A DNA stretch of 64,000 bases from an uncultured Candidatus Saccharibacteria bacterium (GCA_964401135.1 CAYNXC010000002.1:16457-80456); one strand, 5' to 3'. Counted from the stretch's first letter, positions 32,504 to 43,651 are shown. Translations and numbers: made by a program. Notes: generated by a model not told the origin, from the letters alone.

Positions 32504-32588
32504 GGAGGGGTCGCATAGAGGCCTAGTGCGCGCGCTTGGAAAGCGCGTAAGGGTTACACCTTCGAGGGTTCGAATCCCTCCCTCTCCG
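32504..32588 (+). tRNA. tRNA-Ser (GGA), class II with a long variable arm.
   Basis: Acceptor GGAGGGG/CCTCTCC, anticodon stem CGCGC/GCGCG, loop TTGGAAA, variable hairpin AAGG-GTTACA-CCTT and T-arm GAGGG/CCCTC. Confidence 0.8.
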
Positions 32589-32666
32589 CACTAAGAACCT
32601 GGTAGTTTTGTGACCCAAGTACCTAAGGTTGTAGGGCGACCCAGGTACCTAGTAATTACCTGGAAA

Positions 32667-33911
32667 ATGCCCGACGAATATCGCAATCATCATTACGTAC
32701 CACAGTGGTACCAAAAGAAGTTCATGCTACCGAACGAGCATGAGTTATTTCACTTGGATTTAAAACCCGAGACGTTCACCGATCCTCGCGGCGTGGTTCA
32801 TACCAAGAAGCCATTACGGCGACAAGGTAGTAAAAAGTGTTTCGTCCAAGAGGATCTTTATACGACGAAGATTCAAGGTATCGAAACAAAGGATATAGAG
32901 AAATATTTCTTCGGCGATATTGATACCAAAGGTCGTCCTGCTGTCGAATATTTCGAGGGGTTTGATTATCCCCTTAAACCCTGGGGTGAATCACTTCAGG
33001 ACATCATGCGTTACATGAGTACACAGAAGCTCAGGACTCCGAAAGGTCTATCATTTCTTAGCGAGAAAATTGGAAGTAAGGATAAGGACGCGATTCTACG
33101 CAATATGATCCGAGTGCGTAATGTTCATGCCGCTATTTGGATGGAATGCGTCTGGCTTATTGCAGACGCTTCACAGTCGGAGACTAAATTCATCATCTCA
33201 GACCATCCCGTTACTGTTTATAATCGTGAATGCGGTCCTCGATCCAGTTACTGTCGAGACTCAAATGACCCCGAGATATGGCTTCAAGGTACGCATACAA
33301 TTTTTCCACTTTCCATAGATAAGGTTCTCATTCTCACAAATTTATCCTGGGTGCGGAATCCATATCAATCCGCAACCAATCTACGACCGAATCCAAATCC
33401 ATACCGCAATGCGATATTCAAATTTACTGACGTTCAGGTTCGACGACAATTAAGTGAACAAGAGGTACGAGAAATCAATTTCATCATAAAAAGCCGAGCT
33501 TCCCGATATGTAGCCGCAGCCAAAGAAGAATGGCTTTACCCAGAAAGACATGTATCCAAATCAGATTGGAACAAATACGGTCATGGATATCTTTTGATGC
33601 CCGATCCTCGCGCTATTCATTGGGGAGGAACCATAATGTGGGGCGGTGGCCCAGGCGGTCCAGGTGCAATGGATGAATATGGAAGACTGCCCGGAGATCC
33701 TGATTTTGAAGCAGAGACAACCAAAGGTAAGGAGTACCAAACGCTCCCTTGGTTTCAGGGAGAATTTGCAAAGCTGTTCGGTCCTTATCGCCGAGGCCGT
33801 TGTATGCAACATATTGAAATTGAAAAGGAACGGGACGATGATGAATTTCACCAGTACCATCTCGGTCTTCAGAAAAAGAGCTATAAGGAACGACACGGCA
33901 AGAAGAAATAG
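32667..33911 (+). CDS. DUF4238 family protein (HHYVPQ and SDHPV motifs). Cargo of the tRNA-Ser-adjacent island.
   Basis: The N-terminal RNHHYVPQWYQKKF and the central KFIISDHPVTV match the two hallmark motifs of DUF4238. The track ORF starts at 32610, but 32667 (MPDEY) is more plausible. Confidence 0.55.
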   Translation: MPDEYRNHHYVPQWYQKKFMLPNEHELFHLDLKPETFTDPRGVVHTKKPLRRQGSKKCFVQEDLYTTKIQGIETKDIEKYFFGDIDTKGRPAVEYFEGFDYPLKPWGESLQDIMRYMSTQKLRTPKGLSFLSEKIGSKDKDAILRNMIRVRNVHAAIWMECVWLIADASQSETKFIISDHPVTVYNRECGPRSSYCRDSNDPEIWLQGTHTIFPLSIDKVLILTNLSWVRNPYQSATNLRPNPNPYRNAIFKFTDVQVRRQLSEQEVREINFIIKSRASRYVAAAKEEWLYPERHVSKSDWNKYGHGYLLMPDPRAIHWGGTIMWGGGPGGPGAMDEYGRLPGDPDFEAETTKGKEYQTLPWFQGEFAKLFGPYRRGRCMQHIEIEKERDDDEFHQYHLGLQKKSYKERHGKKK

Positions 33912-33914
33912 TTT

Positions 33915-35225
33915 TTAGTTGGAGTCCTCTGTAAGCAGAGTAATCTTCTTATCGTTCAGCACCAATCTGCTTCTTAGATGACCCATCAGTTCACGCTTCT
34001 CAAGCGGTGTACCCTCGCGGAGTACGTATTTTGCATATTCCTTTGTCGCAATATCGTCTTCATCGATCTGCATCTTGGGCTTGCCTTTGACCGCAAGTCT
34101 CTGCAATCTATTGAATCGCTTAATTTCTTCTTCGAGCTTCATCCGCATGCCAAGCTCGTTCATGGTGAGCTTGTCGATAATCTTGAATAGTTCCTCGACG
34201 AGTTCTTCCTCGCGGATATATTTGTTCTTGCAGTTCCTGTCTCTCGCTTTCGAGCAAGAGTAGTAGACGTACTTTGCATTCGTGCCATCTTTGAGCAGTT
34301 TGTATTTCTCCTGCGCCGTGATGCCCGATCCGCACATGCCACAGGTAAATAATTTGGTGAAGGCAAACTCTCTGTTCTCGCGCACAACTTTGTCGCGCTT
34401 CAATTGCTCCTGCACTTTCTTGAATAATTCCTCGCTGATTAGCGGCTCATGTGTTCCTTGATACCAGTTGCCGCTGTTCTTTGGATACTCGAATGGTCCG
34501 TAATAAATGGGCATCTGGAGCATGCGATATACACCAGAGAGTGTGAGTGGCTTGTTACCTCGCGTATAGAAGTTAAGCTCGAAACGGAGCCAGTTGTACA
34601 CTTTTCTACCGCTCCACAAATCGTATGCCACTTTTTCAAACATCTGCTTCACGATCGGTGCACGTTGCGGATCAATAACGATACGGCATTTCTTTTCTAT
34701 CAATTTCTGGTTGAGATATCCGAGCGGCGCCATGCCCGGCCACAACCCCATCTCCACTCTCGTTCTCAAACCTCGCTTCACGTTGATGCCCCGGTTGTCG
34801 TTCTCGAGCTTCGCCTGCGATCCAAGGATCATGAGGAGGAATTTTTCATTCGGATTATTAGTAAACTTTTGTCCGTAGGTGCGTATTTCCTTGAGCTTTC
34901 CAACGTCCATAAGATCGATCACTTTGCCGAGGTCGCCTGCGTTACGGCTGATGCGATCCGGCGCCCATGTGAGGATACCGTTGTATTTGTCATCCCTAAT
35001 TTCTTCGATGATCTCGTTAAATACAGGGCGCTGGCCAGTCTCCTTGGCGGAGTGAGATTCTCGCTTCATTGTCACAACTTCCAAATTTTCTCGCTCTGCT
35101 AGCTGGAGCATCTCCTTGATCTGGGAATCGATAGAAAGCGCCTGTCGTTCCTCCGCTTCGCTCGACTTGCGGGCATACAGGCAATATCTGATTGGTTTCT
35201 GTTCCTTTACGGTTGCGTTTTCCAT
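33915..35225 (-). CDS. Large serine recombinase (integrase).
   Basis: N-terminal resolvase catalytic domain (YARKSS catalytic Ser, DRISRN), a recombinase domain, and a Cys4 zinc ribbon (CGMCGS...CSKARDRNC) with a coiled-coil tail. 436 aa. Confidence 0.85.
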   Translation of the reverse strand: MENATVKEQKPIRYCLYARKSSEAEERQALSIDSQIKEMLQLAERENLEVVTMKRESHSAKETGQRPVFNEIIEEIRDDKYNGILTWAPDRISRNAGDLGKVIDLMDVGKLKEIRTYGQKFTNNPNEKFLLMILGSQAKLENDNRGINVKRGLRTRVEMGLWPGMAPLGYLNQKLIEKKCRIVIDPQRAPIVKQMFEKVAYDLWSGRKVYNWLRFELNFYTRGNKPLTLSGVYRMLQMPIYYGPFEYPKNSGNWYQGTHEPLISEELFKKVQEQLKRDKVVRENREFAFTKLFTCGMCGSGITAQEKYKLLKDGTNAKYVYYSCSKARDRNCKNKYIREEELVEELFKIIDKLTMNELGMRMKLEEEIKRFNRLQRLAVKGKPKMQIDEDDIATKEYAKYVLREGTPLEKRELMGHLRSRLVLNDKKITLLTEDSN

Positions 35226-35349
35226 GCATACACGAACATACCGGATACGGGTACGAAGTCTAGCCGCATACGAAACACAGAGCAGAAGCGGGAGGAAGTC
35301 AACTACACAAAAATCCCGAGGGAAGCTAAGGTCTTTTAGGGGGTGAGAA

Positions 35350-35562
35350 TTAAAAACTAATGAGATTGTTCACTTTAAGCCCTAGTGCTTTGGCGATCTT
35401 CTCCATGTTGGTGAGTGTAATGTTTTTCTCGGCACGTTCAATCATACCGATGTATGTCCTGTGGACTTTAGCCAACTGCCCTAAGCGCTCTTGAGAAATA
35501 TCGCGTTTCAGTCGTTCTTCTCGGACTCTTTTGCCAAATTGTATGAGAATAGTCTTGTTCAT
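35350..35562 (-). CDS. XRE-family HTH transcriptional regulator (cI/Cro-like repressor).
   Basis: 70 aa with the HTH_3 motif (SQERLGQLAKVHRTYIGMIERAEKNITLTNMEKIAKAL). Confidence 0.8.
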   Translation of the reverse strand: MNKTILIQFGKRVREERLKRDISQERLGQLAKVHRTYIGMIERAEKNITLTNMEKIAKALGLKVNNLISF

Positions 35563-35586
35563 CTACACCGTTAAGTGTAGGAATTT

Positions 35587-35651
35587 GCTAACTTTGGTTC
35601 TATATACTATAGTTAGCATATATTCTTGAGAATTTTCATTGCAAAATTCTC
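35587..35651. promoter_or_regulatory. Two palindromic candidate operators in the divergent region between the XRE gene and the surface-protein gene.
   Basis: GCTAACT-N17-AGTTAGC at 35587..35617 and GAGAATTTT-N6-AAAATTCTC at 35628..35651. Confidence 0.4.
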
Positions 35652-35661
35652 GGGGGGGGGG
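35652..35661 (+). repeat. G10 homopolymeric tract 20 nt upstream of the ATG of the surface-protein gene.
   Basis: cGGGGGGGGGGtaaaattgagaacaatattcATG. It abuts operator palindrome 2. Confidence 0.9.
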
Positions 35662-35681
35662 TAAAATTGAGAACAATATTC

Positions 35682-36521
35682 ATGAATAAAATCTTTAAAA
35701 GACTACTCGTATTTGCGGTACTATTTGCTCTTACTTCTTCGAATGTTTTTGCTGCAACTAAAACCTGGGACTTTTCCACTTCGTCGGACTACACTTTTGA
35801 TACTACTAAAATTGAAGTCATAGGAGGACAAGCACAATTGAAAGCTACAACAACTCCTGCTTGGTATGACACCAGTTGGAAATATAGAAAGAAAATATCA
35901 ATTGACCATACAAAAATATCGTCAGATTTAACAGATTTTCCTGTTCTCGTTAATCAAACTTCTGACTCAGACTTGGCAGCCAAAGCGTTAACGTCAGGTA
36001 ACGATATATTTTTCACTTCATCTGATGGAGTTACAAAACTAAGCCACGAAATAGAGACATATGCATCAACAACAGGAGCTTTAGCTGCATGGATTAAAGT
36101 TCCTACAGTATCCTCTTCTGTAGATACTGATGTTTATATGTATTATGGTAATGCTGCAGCTTCTGCTCAAGCGAATGCAAATGGAGTATGGGATAGTAAT
36201 TCAATTGTTGTTCAACATCTTAATGCTACTACTAGCCCAGCACTAGACTCAACATCTAATGCGAATAGTGGAGTTCAGTCTGGAGGAGTTACTTTCAGTG
36301 CAACAGGCAAGATAGGTAATGCTGTGAGCATGGACGGTGTTAATGACAAACTATCCTTAACAAGTAATAGTGGCTTAAACGCAACAGGCACCCTAAGTAT
36401 TAGTGCATGGGTAAATAGAACTGCATCGGGCAAGATGAGGGTAGTTGCAAAAACAGTTACTACTGGAACAACTGACAACCCATATGATTTTGGTATAAAT
36501 ACGGATAATACACTTTATTTA
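35682..36521 (+). pseudogene. 5' fragment (about 280 codons) of a large secreted DUF2341/LamG-like surface-protein gene, interrupted by IS insertion.
   Basis: Signal peptide MNKIFKRLLVFAVLFALTSSNVFAA, a DUF2341-like WKYRKKISIDHTKISSDLTDFPVLV, and a LamG-like region. The frame runs into the IS left inverted repeat and stops 9 codons later. Confidence 0.75.
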
Positions 36522-36551
36522 AGGGAACTATATACAATGTTACCCTAAAAA

Positions 36552-37085
36552 TTAATTAGATTTTGGTTTGTCTAAATCTTCCAAAGAAAAGCCCAGGTCA
36601 GGAAAAATAAGATTTCTTAGATAAATACTCCCTGCAAAAAGAACGGTATTAATATCAACTCCAGACTGGAAAGCCCCTTGTTTGAGTGATTCTACAACAT
36701 CAGGACAATGTATTGGTAACTCCATCATTATCTCGGATATTACTTTCTCTGCATCATAAGGATTAGTCGTATTTTTACTTTGAACTAATTTTAGAAGTTC
36801 GTCTTTTTTTGCGTCAATAATTTCTTTAATTCCGCTATCATCTAAGATAGCTTGCCCTCTTGAGTTTAATTGTCGTGGAGAATTAGCAGGTGCAATTTTG
36901 TCTTTCCATAGAATATCCAGTTTAGGGAACATATCTGCCACTTTGGGTTTAATGTCTTTAATATCTTCCAGCATAAAATTTGTTCTTTCATCAATCCTCG
37001 CAATCAATTCACGAGTATTACCCAACAGGATAGCAGAAATCCAGTTACCTGCTTTTTTGGCTAAATTAAGGGCTTGTTGTTCCAT
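36552..37085 (-). CDS. Hypothetical 177-aa passenger protein of the IS element, function unknown.
   Basis: Intact ORF between IRL and the transposase gene, on the opposite strand. No motif recognised. Confidence 0.5.
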   Translation of the reverse strand: MEQQALNLAKKAGNWISAILLGNTRELIARIDERTNFMLEDIKDIKPKVADMFPKLDILWKDKIAPANSPRQLNSRGQAILDDSGIKEIIDAKKDELLKLVQSKNTTNPYDAEKVISEIMMELPIHCPDVVESLKQGAFQSGVDINTVLFAGSIYLRNLIFPDLGFSLEDLDKPKSN

Positions 37086-37197
37086 AGGATTATTACATTA
37101 CTAGTATATCAAAACGGCTGTTGCAAGTTAATACTAGTCAAAAAGTTACCCCCAATTATTACTTGACAACCCTATTGTGATCGTATAAGCTATAGGT

Positions 37198-38115
37198 ATG
37201 GATAGCCGATACAAAACCTTGGTAGAGTTCCTCGCCCACTTTAAGGATGAGGAAACCTGTCAAAAATACTTTGAGCAAATCCGCTTCTCCCAAGGCGAGT
37301 ATTGCCCTCATTGTAACCACAGTAAAATCAACCGCTTTTCAGACGGCAAACGCTTTCGCTGTGCTAAGTGCAAAAAGGACTTCACTATTAAGACCAAGAC
37401 CGTCTTTGGCGAAAGCAAAATCTCAATGCAGAAATGGTTTGTCGCAATTTACCTTTTGTCCGTCAATAAGAAAGGCATTAGCTCTATTAACCTAGCCGAG
37501 CAAGTGGGCGTTACTCAAAAGACCGCGTGGTTTATGGATCATCGTATTCGTAAAGCCTTGAAACAAAATAGCGGTCAGTTGTTTGGCACAGTAGAAATAG
37601 ACGAAACCTATATCGGCGGCAAGGAAAAGAACAAGCACGCCCACAAGCGAACCAAGCGCACCCAAGGCCGAAACACTTTGACCAAAACCCCTGTAATGGG
37701 AATGATACAGCGAGGCGGTGCAATGAAAGCCAAAGTGATAGATAATGTAAAGATGCGAACCTTGGAAAGTCTGATTATTGAAAATGTAAAAATTGGGACA
37801 CAGCTCTACACAGACGAGTTTTTGTCTTACTCCAAAATCGGCAGTCTCTTTGCTCACGAGGCCGTGTCACACGGCAAAGGCCAGTATGTAAAAGGTGATA
37901 GCCACTCCAACACCGCCGAGAGTTTTTGGGCATTGTTTAAGCGTGGCTACTACGGCACTTACCACAACATGAGTAAGAAGCATTTGCAGAAGTATGTGGA
38001 CGAGTTCGTGTATCGCTTTAACAACCGAGCCGTGGAGCTAGCCGATGTATTCACTGATGTCGTGGCGAATGTAGCGGGTAGCGAGAAGCTGGCTTATAAG
38101 ACTCTTACCGCTTAA
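37198..38115 (+). CDS. IS1595-family DDE transposase.
   Basis: N-terminal zinc ribbon (CPHCNHSKI...FRCAKCKKDF), VEIDETYIGGKEKNKH, SNTAESFWALFKRGYYGTYH and YVDEFVYRFNNR blocks characteristic of IS1595/ISXO2-like transposases. Confidence 0.85.
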   Translation: MDSRYKTLVEFLAHFKDEETCQKYFEQIRFSQGEYCPHCNHSKINRFSDGKRFRCAKCKKDFTIKTKTVFGESKISMQKWFVAIYLLSVNKKGISSINLAEQVGVTQKTAWFMDHRIRKALKQNSGQLFGTVEIDETYIGGKEKNKHAHKRTKRTQGRNTLTKTPVMGMIQRGGAMKAKVIDNVKMRTLESLIIENVKIGTQLYTDEFLSYSKIGSLFAHEAVSHGKGQYVKGDSHSNTAESFWALFKRGYYGTYHNMSKKHLQKYVDEFVYRFNNRAVELADVFTDVVANVAGSEKLAYKTLTA

Positions 38116-38116
38116 T

Positions 38117-39025
38117 ATGTCCCCACGAGAACGCAAATATCACGAGGGGTTAGGGGTAGACTTTAATCAAGCTCTTGTCTCTATTGCTGGTGAGAACCGA
38201 ACCGAGCGGAGTATCGCCGCCCGACCATTTCTAAAGTGGGTCGGTGGCAAGCGGTCAATCCTGCCAGAGCTTCTAAAGCGGTTGCCGACCAAGTATGACG
38301 CTTACCATGAGCTGTTTCTAGGCGGTGGTGCGTTGTACTTCGCCGTCCAGCCAGAGGAGGCTTATCTGTCTGATGTAAACTTCCACCTCATCCTTACTTT
38401 CAAGGCGGTGCGAGATGATCTGGACAGCTTAATCCGTCAGTTAAAAATCCACGAACGATTACACAACAAGGAATACTATCTCAAAGCTCGCCAGAAGCTC
38501 TTTAAGGAAAAGGACACCACCAAACTGGCGGCTCTCTTTATCTACCTCAATAAAACTTGCTTCAATGGTCTTTACCGAGTAAACAAGGGGGGTGGCTTCA
38601 ATGTCCCGATGGGCGACTACAAAGACCCAAACATTTTAGACGAGGAAAATCTGCGTAATGCTTCAAAGGTTTTAGCGACCGCCGAGATTAAACAGCACGG
38701 CTTTGAGCATACCAAAATCTACAAAGGCGACTTCTACTATCTTGACCCGCCCTATCACGAAACCTATAGCGGTTATGATGGCTCTGGCTTTGGCGATGAA
38801 CACCACCGCAAGCTCGCCGAGTTCTGCAAACAGATAGACCAAAAGGGCAGTTACTTTATGCTCTCCAACAGCGACACGCCATTTGTCAGAGAGTTATATA
38901 AGGGCTATACTATTGAGCAAGTAGAGGCTTCACGAAATGTCTCTTGCAAAGCCCACCAGCGAGGCAAAGAAAATGAGCTTATCATCCGAAACTACACCAA
39001 TAACGGGGGGCGGACAAGCCAATAA
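38117..39025 (+). CDS. Dam-family N6-adenine DNA methyltransferase (alpha class).
   Basis: FLKWVGGKRSILPELL (SAM-binding motif I) and YYLDPPY (motif IV). About 300 aa. Confidence 0.85.
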   Translation: MSPRERKYHEGLGVDFNQALVSIAGENRTERSIAARPFLKWVGGKRSILPELLKRLPTKYDAYHELFLGGGALYFAVQPEEAYLSDVNFHLILTFKAVRDDLDSLIRQLKIHERLHNKEYYLKARQKLFKEKDTTKLAALFIYLNKTCFNGLYRVNKGGGFNVPMGDYKDPNILDEENLRNASKVLATAEIKQHGFEHTKIYKGDFYYLDPPYHETYSGYDGSGFGDEHHRKLAEFCKQIDQKGSYFMLSNSDTPFVRELYKGYTIEQVEASRNVSCKAHQRGKENELIIRNYTNNGGRTSQ

Positions 39026-39473
39026 AACGGGCAGTGTTTTAGAGCTATTTATCAAGCGACTTTTAGAGGACAACGGCTACACCGCCTTTCCTAACCACAA
39101 AGCCCAGCTATTCGCCAATCGTAAAACTGTCGGTGGTAAGCAATACTCTACCCAAGTTCCTTGTGGTACGAGTATCTACGAAACCCAGCGTAAATGCGAC
39201 TTCTTGATCATGAACCAAGACAAGTTCCCCGATGGACTGGTGATTGAGTGCAAGTGGCAACAGTCTACTGGCTCGGTAGACGAGAAGTACCCTTTTACCT
39301 TGTTTAACATCATCAAGATCGGCGTGCCAACCATCATTCTGCTGGACGGCAACGGCTACAAAAAGGCGGCGATGAAGTGGTTAAAAGACCAAGTGAACCC
39401 ACAGAGAGCCTTAATCGGCGTTTACAATATGGCCGAGTTTCAAGCTATGGTAAATAAGGGGTTTTTAGGTTAG
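38937..39473 (+). CDS. Short PD-(D/E)XK nuclease, the putative restriction endonuclease partner of the Dam methylase.
   Basis: CDFLIM...GLVIECKWQ gives a D...ExK core. It overlaps the 3' end of the methylase gene (possible true start M13 at 38973), and its stop is inside the IRR. Confidence 0.55.
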   Translation: MSLAKPTSEAKKMSLSSETTPITGGGQANKTGSVLELFIKRLLEDNGYTAFPNHKAQLFANRKTVGGKQYSTQVPCGTSIYETQRKCDFLIMNQDKFPDGLVIECKWQQSTGSVDEKYPFTLFNIIKIGVPTIILLDGNGYKKAAMKWLKDQVNPQRALIGVYNMAEFQAMVNKGFLG

Positions 39474-39490
39474 GGTAACTTTGTATATAA

Positions 39491-42190
39491 TTCCCTTATT
39501 TAAATCGTGCAGATTCAAGTGTTGTAAATTTTCTATCAAGTTCAACAACTGTACCGACAAATTCATGGACAAAAATTGAAGTAATTGATGACACTGTCGT
39601 TAAAAGTGCTTTCAACAGCGTCTCAAAATTAGTCACCCTAGCGACATCTACAAGAGCGTGGCAGGGGGTAGCAAGTGATGGGACTTATATCTATGCAATT
39701 GGACAAAATGCTATTTCGCAGTTTGATATGCAAGGTAATTTTATAAAAGAAAAGAATAATGTATACAGTGGTTTTACTGGTGGCAACATCCTAGGTAATG
39801 GAACAGTAATTAATGGAAAGTTATATGTCGGGGCATATAATGCGAATACTTTAGGAGCGTCAACAAATCCTAATTACACTCCGTTATCAGATCTTCAATC
39901 AAAAATTGCTGTCTTTAGCCTATCTGATTTTTCATTAATTGAAGATTTTAACCTTGGTACTCAAGTAAAAATTGCTGAGGGTGTTGATTATCACAATGGT
40001 TACTTTTGGGTAGTTGATGGATGGTTTGATACTTTCGTCGTAAAAAAATACGATACTAGTTTTAATTTAGTCTCTACGTATAGCTTGCCTGTAGCAAATG
40101 CTTTCGCTGGAGAATTAACATACCAAAATATTAATTGGTATGGGAATGACATTTTTGTTAATTGGCATGGCTCAAATTCTTTTGGACAAACCTATGCTTA
40201 TGGGTTGGATCATTATTCTTTTGACGGAACAAATTTTAATTTTGTAGAACGATTAAGACCAGTAACATATGGTGCAGGTCAAGGTATTGCAATTGTCGGA
40301 AATACGTTTTATTGGGCAGATAGACCTGGAAATGCGATCTACAAATCAACATATGTTGGAGCTGGAAATGGTGATGATGGTATTGATCCATCACATACAA
40401 AATTTTTCATAAATGGAGTTGGTGAGCTTGCTCATGTAAGTACTGGCTCTCTCACTGTGCTTTCACCTACAAGTAATACCAGTCCAACGGTTATTGGAAC
40501 TAGGGGCGATTCAAGTAGTTTTTATAAAGGTGTCATAGATGAAGTTCGAATTTCAAATGCGGCAAGATCAGATGCATGGGTCTCGGCAAGTTACGCCAAT
40601 GAAAACTCACCAAGTACATTCTATTCGATGGGTTCGGAACAAAAAAATTATGCAGCTACTAACCCGACTGTTAATCCCACATCATTAAATGCGCAAGCCT
40701 TCTCATCCCTGTCAGGCTTTTCAGCAGTTGAAGTAAGTAATGGAGGAAATATAAAGTATCAAGTTTCAAATGATGGAGGAACCACATGGTATTGGTACAA
40801 CTCTGGCTGGAATACAACAACTTCAGGATACTCTGAGACAAATGCATCTTCAACTATAAATACAAATATCGCTTCTTTACCTGTAGGAAGTGGATCATAC
40901 TTATTTAAAGCATATTTAAATTCTGATGGAACGCAGCAACCTCAGATAGACAGTGTGGTGCTCACATACTCTGCGCCACTTGATATTACAGCTCCTATTA
41001 TATCTGCGATAGCGTCTTCTACATCCCAAACTTCAGCAACTATTACCTGGACGACCGATGAATCAGCCACATCAACGGTAAATTATGGTCTTAACACTTC
41101 ATACGGTACAGCGTCATCCTCATCATCTCTCGTTACCTCTCATTCGATATCCTTGTCAGGATTAACCGCATCAACCGCATACCATTTCCAAGTAGCATCA
41201 GCTGACGCTTCTGGAAACGTTGCAACTTCTTCAGACTATACATTCACCACAACAGCAGTGCCTGACACAACGCCTCCGGTCATTTCATCAATTTCTTCCG
41301 GTTCACTTTCAACTTCAGGAACAACTATAACTTGGACCACTGATGAAGCTGCGGATTCCCAAGTTAACTACGGCACAAGTGCCTCATATGGATCACAGAC
41401 GACCCTTGATTCAACACTAGTGACGAGTCACTCCATTGTAATTTCAGGTCTTTCTGCAGGAACGACGTATCACTACCAAGTAGTGTCAAAAGATGCTTCT
41501 GGAAACACAGCTACATCTTCTGACCAAACCTTTACCACTTCAGCACAGCCTTCGAGCGGGGGTTCATCAAGCGGATCATATTCCGGAGGAGGCTCAATCC
41601 TTATCCAACCTTCTGTGCCGGGCTGTCCTACAGGATTCAATTGTGTAGTAAATCCAACCCCTACCATTTTACCAAATACTTTTACTCGTGATCTCACCAT
41701 AAAAAGTACTGGTAGTGATGTGAAGGTATTGCAGCAGTTCCTGATCGCTAAAGGCTTTCTTGCGAGCGGCAATGACACGGGATACTTTGGTCCTCTGACG
41801 CAAGCTGCTCTCGCGCAATACCAGCTTTCGATGGGTATTAAACCATCGGTTGGATATTTCGGCTCACTTACTCGTGCAGTCATTGCTGTCTCGCAGAACA
41901 TATCACCTACTACTCCATCAATATCAACAAATCCGACGGTACTTCCAAGCACGTTTACTCGAGATCTGTATTTCGGCATGAGTGGAGACGATGTAAAACT
42001 CTTGCAAAAGTTCCTTAATGACCATCAATTTATAGTCAGCCAAACTGGCGCAGGATCTCCAGGACTTGAATCAAATTATTTCGGCCCAGCCACCCGAGAC
42101 GCCCTTATTCGTTTTCAGACTTACAATCACATAGTCCCTGCAGTAGGGTATTTTGGTTCGCTTACACGCCAATTCGTAAATGGTCAGTAG
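39491..42190 (+). pseudogene. 3' portion (about 896 codons) of the IS-interrupted surface-protein gene, with two FN3-like domains and two peptidoglycan-binding (PG_binding_1-like) domains.
   Basis: The frame is open from 39491, immediately after the IRR. ITWTTDESATSTVNYG...AYHFQVASADASGN occurs twice (FN3/PAP-N-like), and GSDVKVLQQFL...YFGPLTQAAL occurs twice (PG-binding). The track ORF starts at an internal ATG, 39728. Confidence 0.75.
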
Positions 42191-42233
42191 GAGTGGATAA
42201 CCCGACTACACAAATCTAAAGAAGGAAGCTAAG

Positions 42234-42596
42234 TTACTTACGTTCGTCCTCAGGCCATGGCTTTGGGCCGAACATCTCGTCGATCTTCTTGATCTCGTCT
42301 TCTGTAAGTTCGCGCTTCGGAGGCCGTTCCGGTACTGGGTCTCCTTTGTACTTCGGCGGCTTTCCGTCCATATGCTCCCAGATGAGCTTGATCATCCGAT
42401 GATCGCCGTCCAGTGCCATCCTTATGATTTTCTCAACCAACGCATCTGCAATAGTCTTGTCTTTATCACTCACAATCCTTTTACTGAGTATCTCTTGGAA
42501 TTGGCTCGTTAGTGTTTTGCCCGGAGGCCTTCCGTTCAAGTTTCTTCTCGGGTCGAATCCGCTTTGGAATGGCTTGAGGTTATTGATGTTGCCCAT
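42234..42596 (-). CDS. Small basic protein with an N-terminal LKPFQSGFDPRRNLNGRP motif (DUF5681-like / AT-hook-like). Tandem paralogue 1.
   Basis: Start placed at MGNINNLKPF by alignment with the neighbouring paralogue. Confidence 0.5.
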   Translation of the reverse strand: MGNINNLKPFQSGFDPRRNLNGRPPGKTLTSQFQEILSKRIVSDKDKTIADALVEKIIRMALDGDHRMIKLIWEHMDGKPPKYKGDPVPERPPKRELTEDEIKKIDEMFGPKPWPEDERK

Positions 42597-42945
42597 GGTC
42601 GTTTCGTTTAAAATACTTCTCAAAATCCGCCTGTTCTTCGGGCGTGTACTCGACCTTTTCTTGCGGTACAAATGGGGTAGGTACCACAAACTCGTCAGGC
42701 ACCTTGCCGTCCACTTGGTCGATGACCATACTCATGGCTTTCAGGTTGCCCTTGGCCGCCTTCCACACAAGCTGCATTACGATAGCCTTATCCTTCCGTG
42801 CCATCTTGCCGTTGAAGTAGACTTTCTCCTTCAATATTTCCATAATCACGGTTCTCACATTCCGAGAACCCTTCGGTCTACCCTTGGTATTCCTTCTTGG
42901 ATCGTACCCTGATTGAAAGGGCTTCAATGTTTTTATATTTCCCAT
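42580..42945 (-). CDS. Small basic protein with an N-terminal LKPFQSGYDPRRNTKGRPKGSRN motif. Tandem paralogue 2.
   Basis: Start placed at MGNIKTLKPF. The shared N-terminal motif and the central helical block align with paralogue 1. Overlaps paralogue 1 by 17 bp. Confidence 0.5.
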   Translation of the reverse strand: MGNIKTLKPFQSGYDPRRNTKGRPKGSRNVRTVIMEILKEKVYFNGKMARKDKAIVMQLVWKAAKGNLKAMSMVIDQVDGKVPDEFVVPTPFVPQEKVEYTPEEQADFEKYFKRNDHGQHQ

Positions 42946-43252
42946 ATCTGGTATTTTACCGGCTTTTTTGTTTGTAAAGGGGTGCATTACTTTCTCGCAG
43001 TTATTTTCACAGATAAAAGGGTGAAAAACGGCTTCTTTTAAGCCTTCGATTTTTCCCGTAATTTCACAGTATTTACGGGTATTTTGACCCCGACCCACAA
43101 ACCTCCTTCGGCTTCCCGAAAAAGTGCTAGAATACCCTTACGACACCTAATCATATGGGTACCGTACCCATAGCCCCCGCAAATTGAAACTTCCTGTTCC
43201 GAAAGCCGAATTGACCGTTGCATGAATAGTATTATCGTCCTAATATATATAC

Positions 43253-43651
43253 ATGAAAGGATACACAGCAAATATTGAGAAGGATACGGTAGCAAACAGT
43301 AGCTTCCGTAAGGTGCTCTATACGGGCAAGCACAGCCAGTTGGTACTGATGAGCATCCCGCCCAAGGGAGAGATTGGTCTGGAGACGCATACAGACAACG
43401 ACCAGTTTTTCCGTTTTGAGAAAGGGGTGGGGAAGTGCCTCATTGATGGTAACGAGTACGCGGTAGGGGACGGTGTCGCGGTGGTGGTCCCTGCAGGAGC
43501 AGAGCACAATGTTATTAACACATCAGAGATCGATGATCTCAAGCTTTACACTATTTACTCGCCATCACATCATAAGGACGGGATCATCCGTGCGACGCGA
43601 GAGGAGGCAGAGGCCAATGAGGCAGAGTTTGACGGCGTGACGAGTGAGTAG
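43253..43651 (+). CDS. Cupin-domain protein.
   Basis: Conserved-barrel motifs G(X)5HxH-like (LETHTDNDQFF...) and PAGAEHNVIN. Confidence 0.65.
   Translation: MKGYTANIEKDTVANSSFRKVLYTGKHSQLVLMSIPPKGEIGLETHTDNDQFFRFEKGVGKCLIDGNEYAVGDGVAVVVPAGAEHNVINTSEIDDLKLYTIYSPSHHKDGIIRATREEAEANEAEFDGVTSE

Follow-up and report, generated by a model that had tools for sequence, protein, structure and literature searches.

What is the DNA that follows a serine tRNA gene in a 64,000-nucleotide stretch from an uncultured bacterium (CAYNXC010000002.1:16457-80456 of GCA_964401135.1; this whole stretch is called the window below), and how did it come to lie there? Serine integrases are textbook recombinases that avoid tRNA genes, and the targeting of tRNA genes is a hallmark of tyrosine integrases. 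A preliminary description of the region, made from the sequence alone, proposed an integrative island next to tRNA-Ser(GGA), holding a cargo gene of the DUF4238 family, a large serine recombinase (LSR) and an XRE-type repressor. We consider it likely, on the evidence given below, that the island is phage-derived, that it was integrated by its LSR at the end of the tRNA-Ser gene, and that DUF4238 is a variable defence cargo. As for the host, the top named matches of the RecA protein from the window genome come from Candidatus Vogelbacteria (91% identity), followed by Parcubacteria/Paceibacterota (76-82%). These matches point to a Vogelbacteria-like member of the Patescibacteria, or candidate phyla radiation (CPR).

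The tRNA gene occupies 32504..32589 on the plus strand. ARAGORN and Rfam (RF00005 tRNA, 51 bits) agree with the earlier identification of a class II tRNA-Ser(GGA) adjoining the island. To locate the boundaries, we collected contigs encoding identical proteins from public assemblies, mapped them to the window with blastn and read the junctions base by base. On the left, island and tRNA gene meet in an attL core, CCGCA, at 32586..32590 (plus strand), made up of the final two bases of the acceptor stem, the discriminator G and two bases of the trailer (...CTCTCCGCA|CTAAGAACC). The same five bases recur as the attR core at 43177..43181 (plus strand; ...CATAGCCCCCGCA|AATTGAAAC). Contigs L010-L016 part from the window exactly at 43177, and host DNA runs on from here, with a cupin gene at 43253. 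An insert-free tRNA-Ser locus (attB) was sought among relatives, and five of these contigs, from five samples, have such a junction (L010, L011, L013, L015 and L016): they open with 23-27 nt of a tRNA-Ser 3' end, joined at CCGCA to window position 43182 onward, and are 98-100% identical to the right flank. At this junction, ...TCCCTCCCTCTCCGCA|AATTGAAAC, up to 27 nt of the tRNA 3' end are joined directly to the right flank. CCGCA is the sole sequence common to attL, attR and the insert-free junction. Between the two cores the island covers 32591-43181, that is, 10,591 bp core to core (10.6 kb), or 7.6 kb before the insertion of an IS1595 transposon described below. A mobile island is thus real, but the range first flagged, 32504-35666, is only its first third, and its length is 10.6 kb rather than about 3 kb.

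A second insertion site bears out the mobility that had been suggested for the island. Contig L001 carries a copy that is 99.85% identical and free of the IS1595 insertion, behind a class II tRNA-Ser(UGA) (we read this anticodon by eye, without ARAGORN) and with unrelated DNA on the other side. Its right junction, CCCCCGC|CAAAAAC, narrows the common block to CCGC. Furthermore, in two contigs (L012 and L014, first ~26 nt) the right ends of other elements are joined at the same CCGC beside the cupin flank, so the tRNA-end site has several element occupants in the population. The T-arm and 3' acceptor strand of tRNA-Ser(GGA) are the B arm of the attachment site, and the gene is intact after insertion. 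Strand exchange would take place inside CCGC (two bases of the acceptor stem, the discriminator G and the first one of the trailer), presumably at a dinucleotide within this block, and would therefore leave the mature tRNA unchanged. The expected attP junction, right end to left end, is CATAGCCCCCGCACTAAGAACC, and the expected attB, downstream of the host HtpX gene, is CCCTCTCCGCAAATTGAAAC. By eye only, the host flank at 43181-43215 right after attR (AAATTGAAACTTCCTGTTCC) resembles the left-end consensus of the element family (ATTGACAACCTGTTAG) save for small indels; this flank is either a half-site preferred by the integrase or the leftover of an earlier element.

The LSR gene (33915..35225, minus strand, 436 aa) is convergent to the cargo gene and encodes three domains typical of LSRs, confirming what had been reported: Resolvase (PF00239, E=5.5e-18, residues 16-160), Recombinase (PF07508, 1.7e-14) and Zn_ribbon_recom (PF13408, 2e-9). 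The translation contains a YARKSS catalytic-serine motif (LYARKSS...SIDSQ) and a four-Cys zinc ribbon (CxxC...Cx7C). It matches the PHROG 95 integrase at 3.7e-65, and the nearest solved structures, SPbeta YokA and the A118 integrase, are distant (E about 1e-9). The attL/attR overlap of 4-5 bp is as expected for serine integrases. Judging from these features, the LSR is probably the integrase of the island and would catalyze recombination between attP and attB.

We then surveyed the LSR family by scanning one genome per species. Relatives were found in at least 575 genomes, and the best 80 loci, nearly all from Patescibacteria, were analyzed in detail. There are more than 8,000 LSR homologues, the top 120 of which, at 71-92% identity, bear names from Kaiser-, Uhr-, Nomura- and Paceibacteria. 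A convergent tRNA-Ser gene follows the LSR stop at a distance of 103-8,485 bp in 61 of the 80 loci, and ARAGORN calls its anticodon as GCT (25 loci), TGA (20), GGA (6), 'ACT' (6) or CGA (4). Among the remaining 19 loci, the sequence ends within 5 kb of the LSR stop in 16, and one has a tRNA-Asp instead. The LSR is the only gene common to all family elements. Their sizes, estimated from right ends found in 18 loci, range from 3.2 to 15 kb, and the smallest (L092, L084 and L082) contain little beyond a right end, the LSR, a cargo slot and a left end.

Two side observations concern the tRNAs. The 'tRNA-Ser(ACT)' calls (L035, L036, L054, L066, L078 and L088) involve an anticodon not expected in bacteria; a class II tRNA may have been miscalled here, or the CPR may have an unusual tRNA. 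Distant LSR relatives (45-63% identical; L045 at 74%) are convergent to tRNA-Asp, -Gln, -Glu, -Asn or -Trp genes, located about 105-150 bp past the LSR in L152, L157, L164, L174 (IMG/VR) and L045, and 2-4.3 kb past it in L167, L168, L171 and L173 (IMG/VR). This suggests that sub-clades of the LSR have been retargeted to other tRNAs.

One could argue that the locus is core, vertically inherited DNA, and that an invertase or resolvase, domesticated and near tRNA-Ser only by chance, is what the LSR represents. The LSR relatives are indeed about as conserved as RecA in the Patescibacteria (70-92% versus 76-91%) and occur in those 575 or more species genomes. However, an insert-free junction and a second insertion site both exist, five anticodon classes of tRNA-Ser serve as targets, and the LSR has different neighbours on either side from genome to genome. 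Moreover, conserved termini fall exactly at synteny breaks and tandem copies of the elements occur. The preliminary description had reasoned that a gene order shared by all relatives would indicate core DNA; what we see is a different cargo each time. Vertical inheritance is thus already contradicted and highly improbable, and only chimeric junction contigs would revive it.

The two ends of the island are conserved across the family. The left end (P' arm, ~70 nt, 32591..32663, plus strand) is conserved immediately behind tRNA-Ser in about 50 related elements. It contains a 25-nt direct repeat with GACCC boxes (32601-32625 / 32627-32651, 76% identical), an inverted pair CCAGGTA/TACCTGG (32641-32647 / 32657-32663) and a 13-nt inverted repeat (32590-32602 / 32641-32653) that encloses the direct repeats. 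Since the same pattern is present in the left ends of those ~50 elements, it is not due to chance. These are the repeats after the tRNA that had been proposed as att half-sites: they are real and lie within the conserved element-side block of attL, but the crossover would fall in the CCGC of the tRNA end. Past CTCCGC and 3 further nt, the family loci have in common GACAAyyTnnTAk and then two GACCC boxes ~26 nt apart. The left end folds as a long imperfect hairpin or palindrome, with a mean z of -2.3 on the top strand and -2.1 on the other, and 61% of members below -2. In an alignment of left ends from about 38 family loci (alignment A3), stems were seen to vary in sequence yet remain paired. 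RNAalifold returned no consensus structure for the aligned left ends because stems shift register between sequences; single-sequence folds do give the hairpin. Neither island end matches any Rfam family. For the palindrome we can envisage a role as an accessory binding site, as a terminator-like insulator that separates tRNA and LSR, or as an RNA.

The right end (P arm, ~115 nt, 43065..43176, plus strand) was identified through homology and an nhmmer profile of family right ends, which matches 43065-43180 (the last 4 nt being the CCGC of attR) at E=2.5e-24 and also detects 18 other loci. Looking for a reverse-complemented copy of the left end had not located the right end, which was not among the top matches of that search. 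Family right ends have the form ...GACCCCGACCCAC...TGCTAGAATACCCTTA...TGGGTACTTAACCC-7 nt-CCGC. That of the window has GACCCCGACCCAC boxes, the motif TGCTAGAAT at 43125-43133 and a mimic of the tRNA T-arm, ATGGGTACCGTACCCAT, at 43155-43171, with 7 nt (43170-43176) between its last C triplet and CCGC. When the right arm (GGGTACTTAACCC + 7 nt + CCGC) is set against the tRNA (GGGTTCGAATCCC + 7 nt + CCGC), 9 of 13 bases match at the same spacing. As the right arm thus parallels the T-arm at equal spacing, the integrase probably reads a T-arm-like half-site on both partners.

Right-end|CCGC|left-end junctions also occur inside three long contigs (L030, L035 and L067), one of which, L035, has three right ends within 2 kb. 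These P|P' junctions indicate tandem arrays of elements.

Some features of the right end are noted here as observations. The GACCCCGACCCAC box at 43085-43097 is similar to the left-end GACCC boxes and has the same orientation. TGCTAGAAT is a strongly conserved, extended -10-like motif about 50 nt inside the right end, pointing outward to the host cupin gene; it is also found in the right ends of L023, L024, L030, L035, L044, L055, L063, L067, L068 and L089, and in a circular or tandem form of the element it would point at the cargo slot. Our promoter and terminator scans performed no better on the island than on shuffled sequence, and a simple promoter scan does not flag TGCTAGAAT. With scans at chance level, TGCTAGAAT stays a conserved motif and only a candidate promoter.

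In the mechanism that we propose, the LSR would recombine two sites: attP, in which CCGC stands between the right-end and left-end arms, and attB, formed by the extreme end of the tRNA-Ser gene. The right-end arm would copy the T-arm in shape and spacing, and an exchange within CCGC would keep the mature tRNA. The same enzyme family would act in this way at all five ARAGORN-called tRNA-Ser anticodon classes across the Patescibacteria. Cargo would be swapped in the slot between the left end and the integrase stop, and in the present island DUF4238 would most likely guard the host, hence the island, from other phages.

The cargo slot, defined as the stretch from the left end to the LSR stop, spans 0-8.5 kb among family elements. 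In 47 slots, 142 open reading frames (ORFs) match 158 Pfam families. Slot contents include restriction-modification (R-M) enzymes, DRT reverse transcriptases, LmuA (Lamassu), PtuA (Septu), AriA (PARIS), AbiL and GajB-like proteins, as well as P-type metal-efflux ATPases with CsoR and further LSRs. In the window the slot holds the DUF4238 gene (32667..33911, plus strand, 414 aa; PF14022, E=4.5e-17, 62.8 bits against a cut-off of 27). Its ORF extends over 32610-33911, and the likeliest start is the ATG at 32667, as in gene calls and in the homologue consensus. Both hallmark motifs reported for this protein are present, as NHHYVPQ and ISDHPV, and residues H9, V11, D179, H180 and P181 are invariant in 91 homologues. 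DUF4238 is absent from the slot in all 80 related loci, and therefore appears to be exchangeable cargo rather than integration machinery. Its close homologues (55-94% identical) are found in varied contexts: the neighbours of 34 of them differ, with no partner gene conserved, and an LSR is adjacent in few. The convergent DUF4238-LSR layout recurs in L101, L102 and L108, where the two genes are 79-80% and 72-73% identical, respectively, and L104 has the arrangement HtpX-tRNA-Ser(GGA)-DUF4238.

The earlier suggestion that DUF4238 proteins may be antiphage effectors agrees with the literature. A single DUF4238 gene from a P2-prophage hotspot gives E. coli strong protection against T7 by a mechanism that is unexplained (Rousset et al. 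2022, PMC9122126), and DUF4238 is listed as a defence system in later surveys. An AlphaFold (AF2) model built from 91 sequences has a pLDDT of 89.6 and a pTM of 0.91, and structurally it matches just one protein significantly, at E=1.1e-6: this protein, uncharacterised and 298 aa long, comes from the P2-like phage Smp131. Most likely, then, the protein is a putative single-gene anti-phage effector in its present host. As a guess from the invariant residues only, H9 and D179-H180 might form a hydrolytic active site, perhaps that of a nuclease.

DUF4238 might instead serve the element itself, as a recombination directionality factor or as a replication or maintenance protein. The gene does lie directly between attL and the LSR, a pairing that recurs in L101, L102 and L108, its mechanism is open, and no solved structure resembles the model. 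On the other hand, none of the 80 genomic family elements carries it, most of its close homologues have no family LSR nearby, the slot is filled by unrelated cargo elsewhere, and a single gene of the DUF4238 family is enough to protect E. coli from T7 (PMC9122126). We thus find a role in the element's own upkeep quite improbable and retain defence as the preferred function.

What kind of element does the LSR family serve? Larger members and viral contigs provide some clues. We found 37 IMG/VR contigs with LSRs 45-85% identical to that of the window. Ten of them (LSRs 54-85% identical) were scanned, and families of the large terminase subunit (TerL) are matched by six ORFs and a family of the small subunit (TerS) by five; ParB-methylase genes are found as well. 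A fusion of ~445 aa between ParB_N and an N6/N4 DNA-methylase is shared by 11 larger elements (L023, L024, L030, L035, L044, L055, L063, L068, L075, L078 and L089). In 7 of these 11 the gene is followed by a small partner ORF, and the two partners tested match HTH_Tnp_1_2 and terminase-small-subunit-like families. The ParB-methylase and its partner look like a satellite-type packaging module, which the window island does not have. Altogether, the LSR clade seems to provide temperate CPR phages with their integrases, and the window island looks like a small phage-derived island or satellite.

Two alternatives to this reading of the element must be weighed. First, it may be a phage satellite or mobilisable island in the strict sense, packaged and transferred by a helper phage of the same LSR family, with DUF4238 directed at competing phages or at the helper. 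The 11 larger members keep the ParB-methylase, seven of them with the partner ORF (TerS-like in the two tested), and no capsid genes were seen in about 20 ORFs scanned from these members. The window's DUF5681 ORFs, described below, match a phage PHROG; at 3-15 kb, the elements fall short of the size of tailed phages; and tandem arrays, as known from satellites, occur in L030, L035 and L067. Against a satellite, tblastn and Pfam searches found no ParB-methylase/TerS module in the window island, DUF5681 has no assigned function and no helper phage was identified. We regard a helper-dependent satellite as possible, if doubtful.

Second, the island may be the immobile remnant of a decayed prophage, its LSR and att ends being relics and its presence or absence reflecting old insertions and deletions. 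No structural, replication or excision-factor genes were found in it, the DUF5681 region is broken differently between strains, an IS has inserted, no attP junction contig was found, and the viral relatives do include those with TerL matches. A 99.85% identical copy at another tRNA-Ser with other flanks nevertheless requires a recent site-specific integration. In addition, the LSR ORF is intact, its family is kept at 70-92% identity, and both ends of the island match the family end profiles strongly (E=2.5e-24 for the right one). Decay to immobility seems unlikely to us, and we return to a mobile, phage-derived island with a defence cargo.

Several results weigh against that reading as well. 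No contig spanning HtpX, tRNA and cupin genes was retrieved by exact-protein look-ups of HtpX with two start sites; LemA contigs all end before the tRNA, and no long insert-free contig was obtained. The insert-free junction is seen only as 23-27 nt of tRNA at contig starts and could therefore be the attR of another island with an exact tRNA-end repeat. The circular attP junction of the window island is absent from contigs encoding its proteins, and no excision factor was identified for the island. The inferred attP has only a weak form of the dyad symmetry expected for serine integrases: over 14 elements, 0.364 of positions are complementary at the C|C of CCGC against a background of ~0.24, with similar peaks elsewhere. 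PHROG and Pfam searches of the island yielded no capsid, portal, terminase, tail, replication or transfer genes. As for DUF4238, a profile search against the PDB gave no match and the best Foldseek match there has E=0.69; the protein is only 14% identical to its Smp131 homologue; and it has no match in phage GenBank records. The PADLOC check put forward at the start also turned out negative, as DUF4238 matches no model of PADLOC-DB v2.0.0 at E<=0.01, a library that may have no model for the family.

We now turn to the remaining genes of the island. Upstream of the LSR on the same strand is the XRE/HTH_3 regulator (35350..35562, minus strand, 70 aa; PF01381, 2.4e-13). The region between it and the plus-strand surface-protein gene (35563..35666) is rich in palindromes, including 35583-35598/35606-35621 and a perfect 9-bp pair at 35628-35636/35643-35651, which are putative operators and promoters; both the XRE gene and these inverted repeats had been correctly observed. 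Two plus-strand sigma-70-like matches in this region are no more than expected by chance. The preliminary description took a cI/Cro-like repressor to be part of the expected layout of such an element. The XRE gene is present, but a phmmer search found none upstream of the LSR in any of the 80 relatives, so we rejected it as a conserved family part, and the only divergent gene is that of the surface protein. The top PADLOC match of the XRE protein is an R-M controller protein (PDLC03665 Control_protein, 1.5e-21). We also considered and rejected a role as controller of the nearby R-M pair: these genes are ~2.5 kb away, inside a separately acquired IS, and XRE is present in L001, L004 and L009, where this IS is absent. 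XRE is probably an element-specific accessory whose targets are the palindromes at 35583-35651 and the LSR operon, the divergent surface-protein gene or both; in our proposed mechanism it would repress these targets. We also observed a 29-nt direct repeat, 79% identical, at 35302-35330 and 42205-42233, each copy just past the stop of a minus-strand gene (XRE and the distal DUF5681 ORF, respectively). It may be due to chance, or be a shared terminator or regulatory piece.

The surface-protein gene is cut in two by the IS. Its 5' part (35667..36522, plus strand; PF10102, with DUF2341/LamG/FN3/PG-binding features) and its 3' part (39496..42190, plus strand; Pfam LamG, FN3-like and two PG_binding_1 domains) flank the insertion. 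The 3' part is collinear with the intact gene of L001, and the gene is unbroken, at 1175 aa, in L001, L004, L007 and L009. The intervening transposon of the IS1595 family (36523..39495, 2,973 bp) has 26-nt terminal inverted repeats with 2 mismatches and is flanked by an 8-bp target duplication, TTATTTAA, at 36515-36522 and 39496-39503, which is present as a single copy at the unfilled L001 site. It contains orf177 (36552-37085, minus strand), a 177-aa passenger to which no function is assigned, and, all on the plus strand, an IS1595 transposase (DDE_Tnp_IS1595 and zinc ribbon, 37198-38115; PF12762, 9.2e-44), a Dam-like D12 methyltransferase (38117-39025; PADLOC type II MTase, 2.3e-88) and a PD-(D/E)XK nuclease (PDDEXK_11 in Pfam, 38937-39473). 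By its gene content, this is an insertion sequence that moves a predicted R-M pair. As listed, the methylase ORF has 89 nt (38937-39025) in common with that of the nuclease; the real start of the nuclease is probably downstream, since the public gene call is shorter (166 aa). The IS is present in the window and in L003/L008, and its absence from L001, L004, L007 and L009 argues for a recent, polymorphic insertion. Finally, two overlapping DUF5681 ORFs (42234..43098, minus strand: 42234-42689 and 42580-43098; PF18932, 1.3e-5 and 7.3e-9) match PHROG 26239, to which no function is assigned; in L001 the corresponding gene calls measure 79 aa and 135 aa, and in L004 the ORFs are fragmented.

Our literature search found no report on serine integrases of Patescibacteria/CPR or on tRNA-end-specific LSR clades; its coverage is incomplete, so novelty is not proven. 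We lean towards a broader interpretation, with rather less assurance than for the island itself. This would be a large, apparently undescribed clade of serine integrases of Patescibacteria that uses the tRNA 3' end as attB and a T-arm mimic as an attP arm, has sub-clades retargeted from tRNA-Ser to tRNA-Asp/-Gln/-Glu/-Asn/-Trp, and serves temperate CPR phages along with derived islands and satellites, whose attL slot shuttles defence and metal-resistance genes. A widespread clade of serine integrases apparently reading the T-arm and acceptor end of tRNAs would be a natural experiment in the evolution of site choice. It could also provide integrases with known, conserved landing sites for the Patescibacteria, a group with almost no genetic tools. 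The variable slot beside attL shows how defence genes such as DUF4238 travel among bacteria with reduced genomes. DUF4238 itself, with a confident model that matches no solved structure and invariant His and Asp residues, is a well-defined target for mechanistic work.

Comparison with known systems helps to place these elements. The window LSR is similar to SPbeta SprA/YokA, Listeria A118 Int, phiC31 and Bxb1 in its resolvase-recombinase-zinc-ribbon layout and N-terminal catalytic serine, and the island shares with these systems an integrase gene near one end of the element and only a few bp common to attP and attB. In contrast to these phage LSRs, the window family targets the 3' ends of tRNA genes, not coding or intergenic sites; one of its attP arms mimics the T-arm with identical spacing; the enzyme is short (436 aa); and its hosts are Patescibacteria. 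The IS within the island shares a DDE_Tnp_IS1595 and zinc-ribbon transposase, terminal inverted repeats and an 8-bp target duplication with other passenger-carrying IS1595 transposons. It differs from them in bearing a full type II R-M-like pair (D12 methylase and PD-(D/E)XK nuclease) plus a 177-aa ORF, inside a surface-protein gene. The DUF4238 system of the P2 hotspot (PMC9122126) has in common with ours PF14022, an N-terminal H-x-V-P, a central D-H-P and its position as a lone gene in a variable slot of a phage-related element beside the attachment site; whereas the P2-like phage form is ~298 aa long, the window protein has 414 aa, with a C-terminal extension of ~120 aa, and belongs to a CPR host, a kind of bacterium that standard assays cannot cultivate.

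The family also shares many traits with P4-like elements, phage-inducible chromosomal islands (PICIs) and tycheposons: insertion at tRNA 3' ends that leaves the tRNA intact, competition for sites, tandem arrays and hotspots of cargo and defence genes. Some of its members are, in addition, small and carry a TerS-like gene. Tycheposons, in which an LSR is found in only 27 of 937 elements (bioRxiv 10.1101/2020.12.28.424599), are the nearest published concept that we found. The family differs from all three kinds of element in that its recombinase is of the serine rather than the tyrosine type, and in that its identity block measures 4-5 bp instead of tens of bp.

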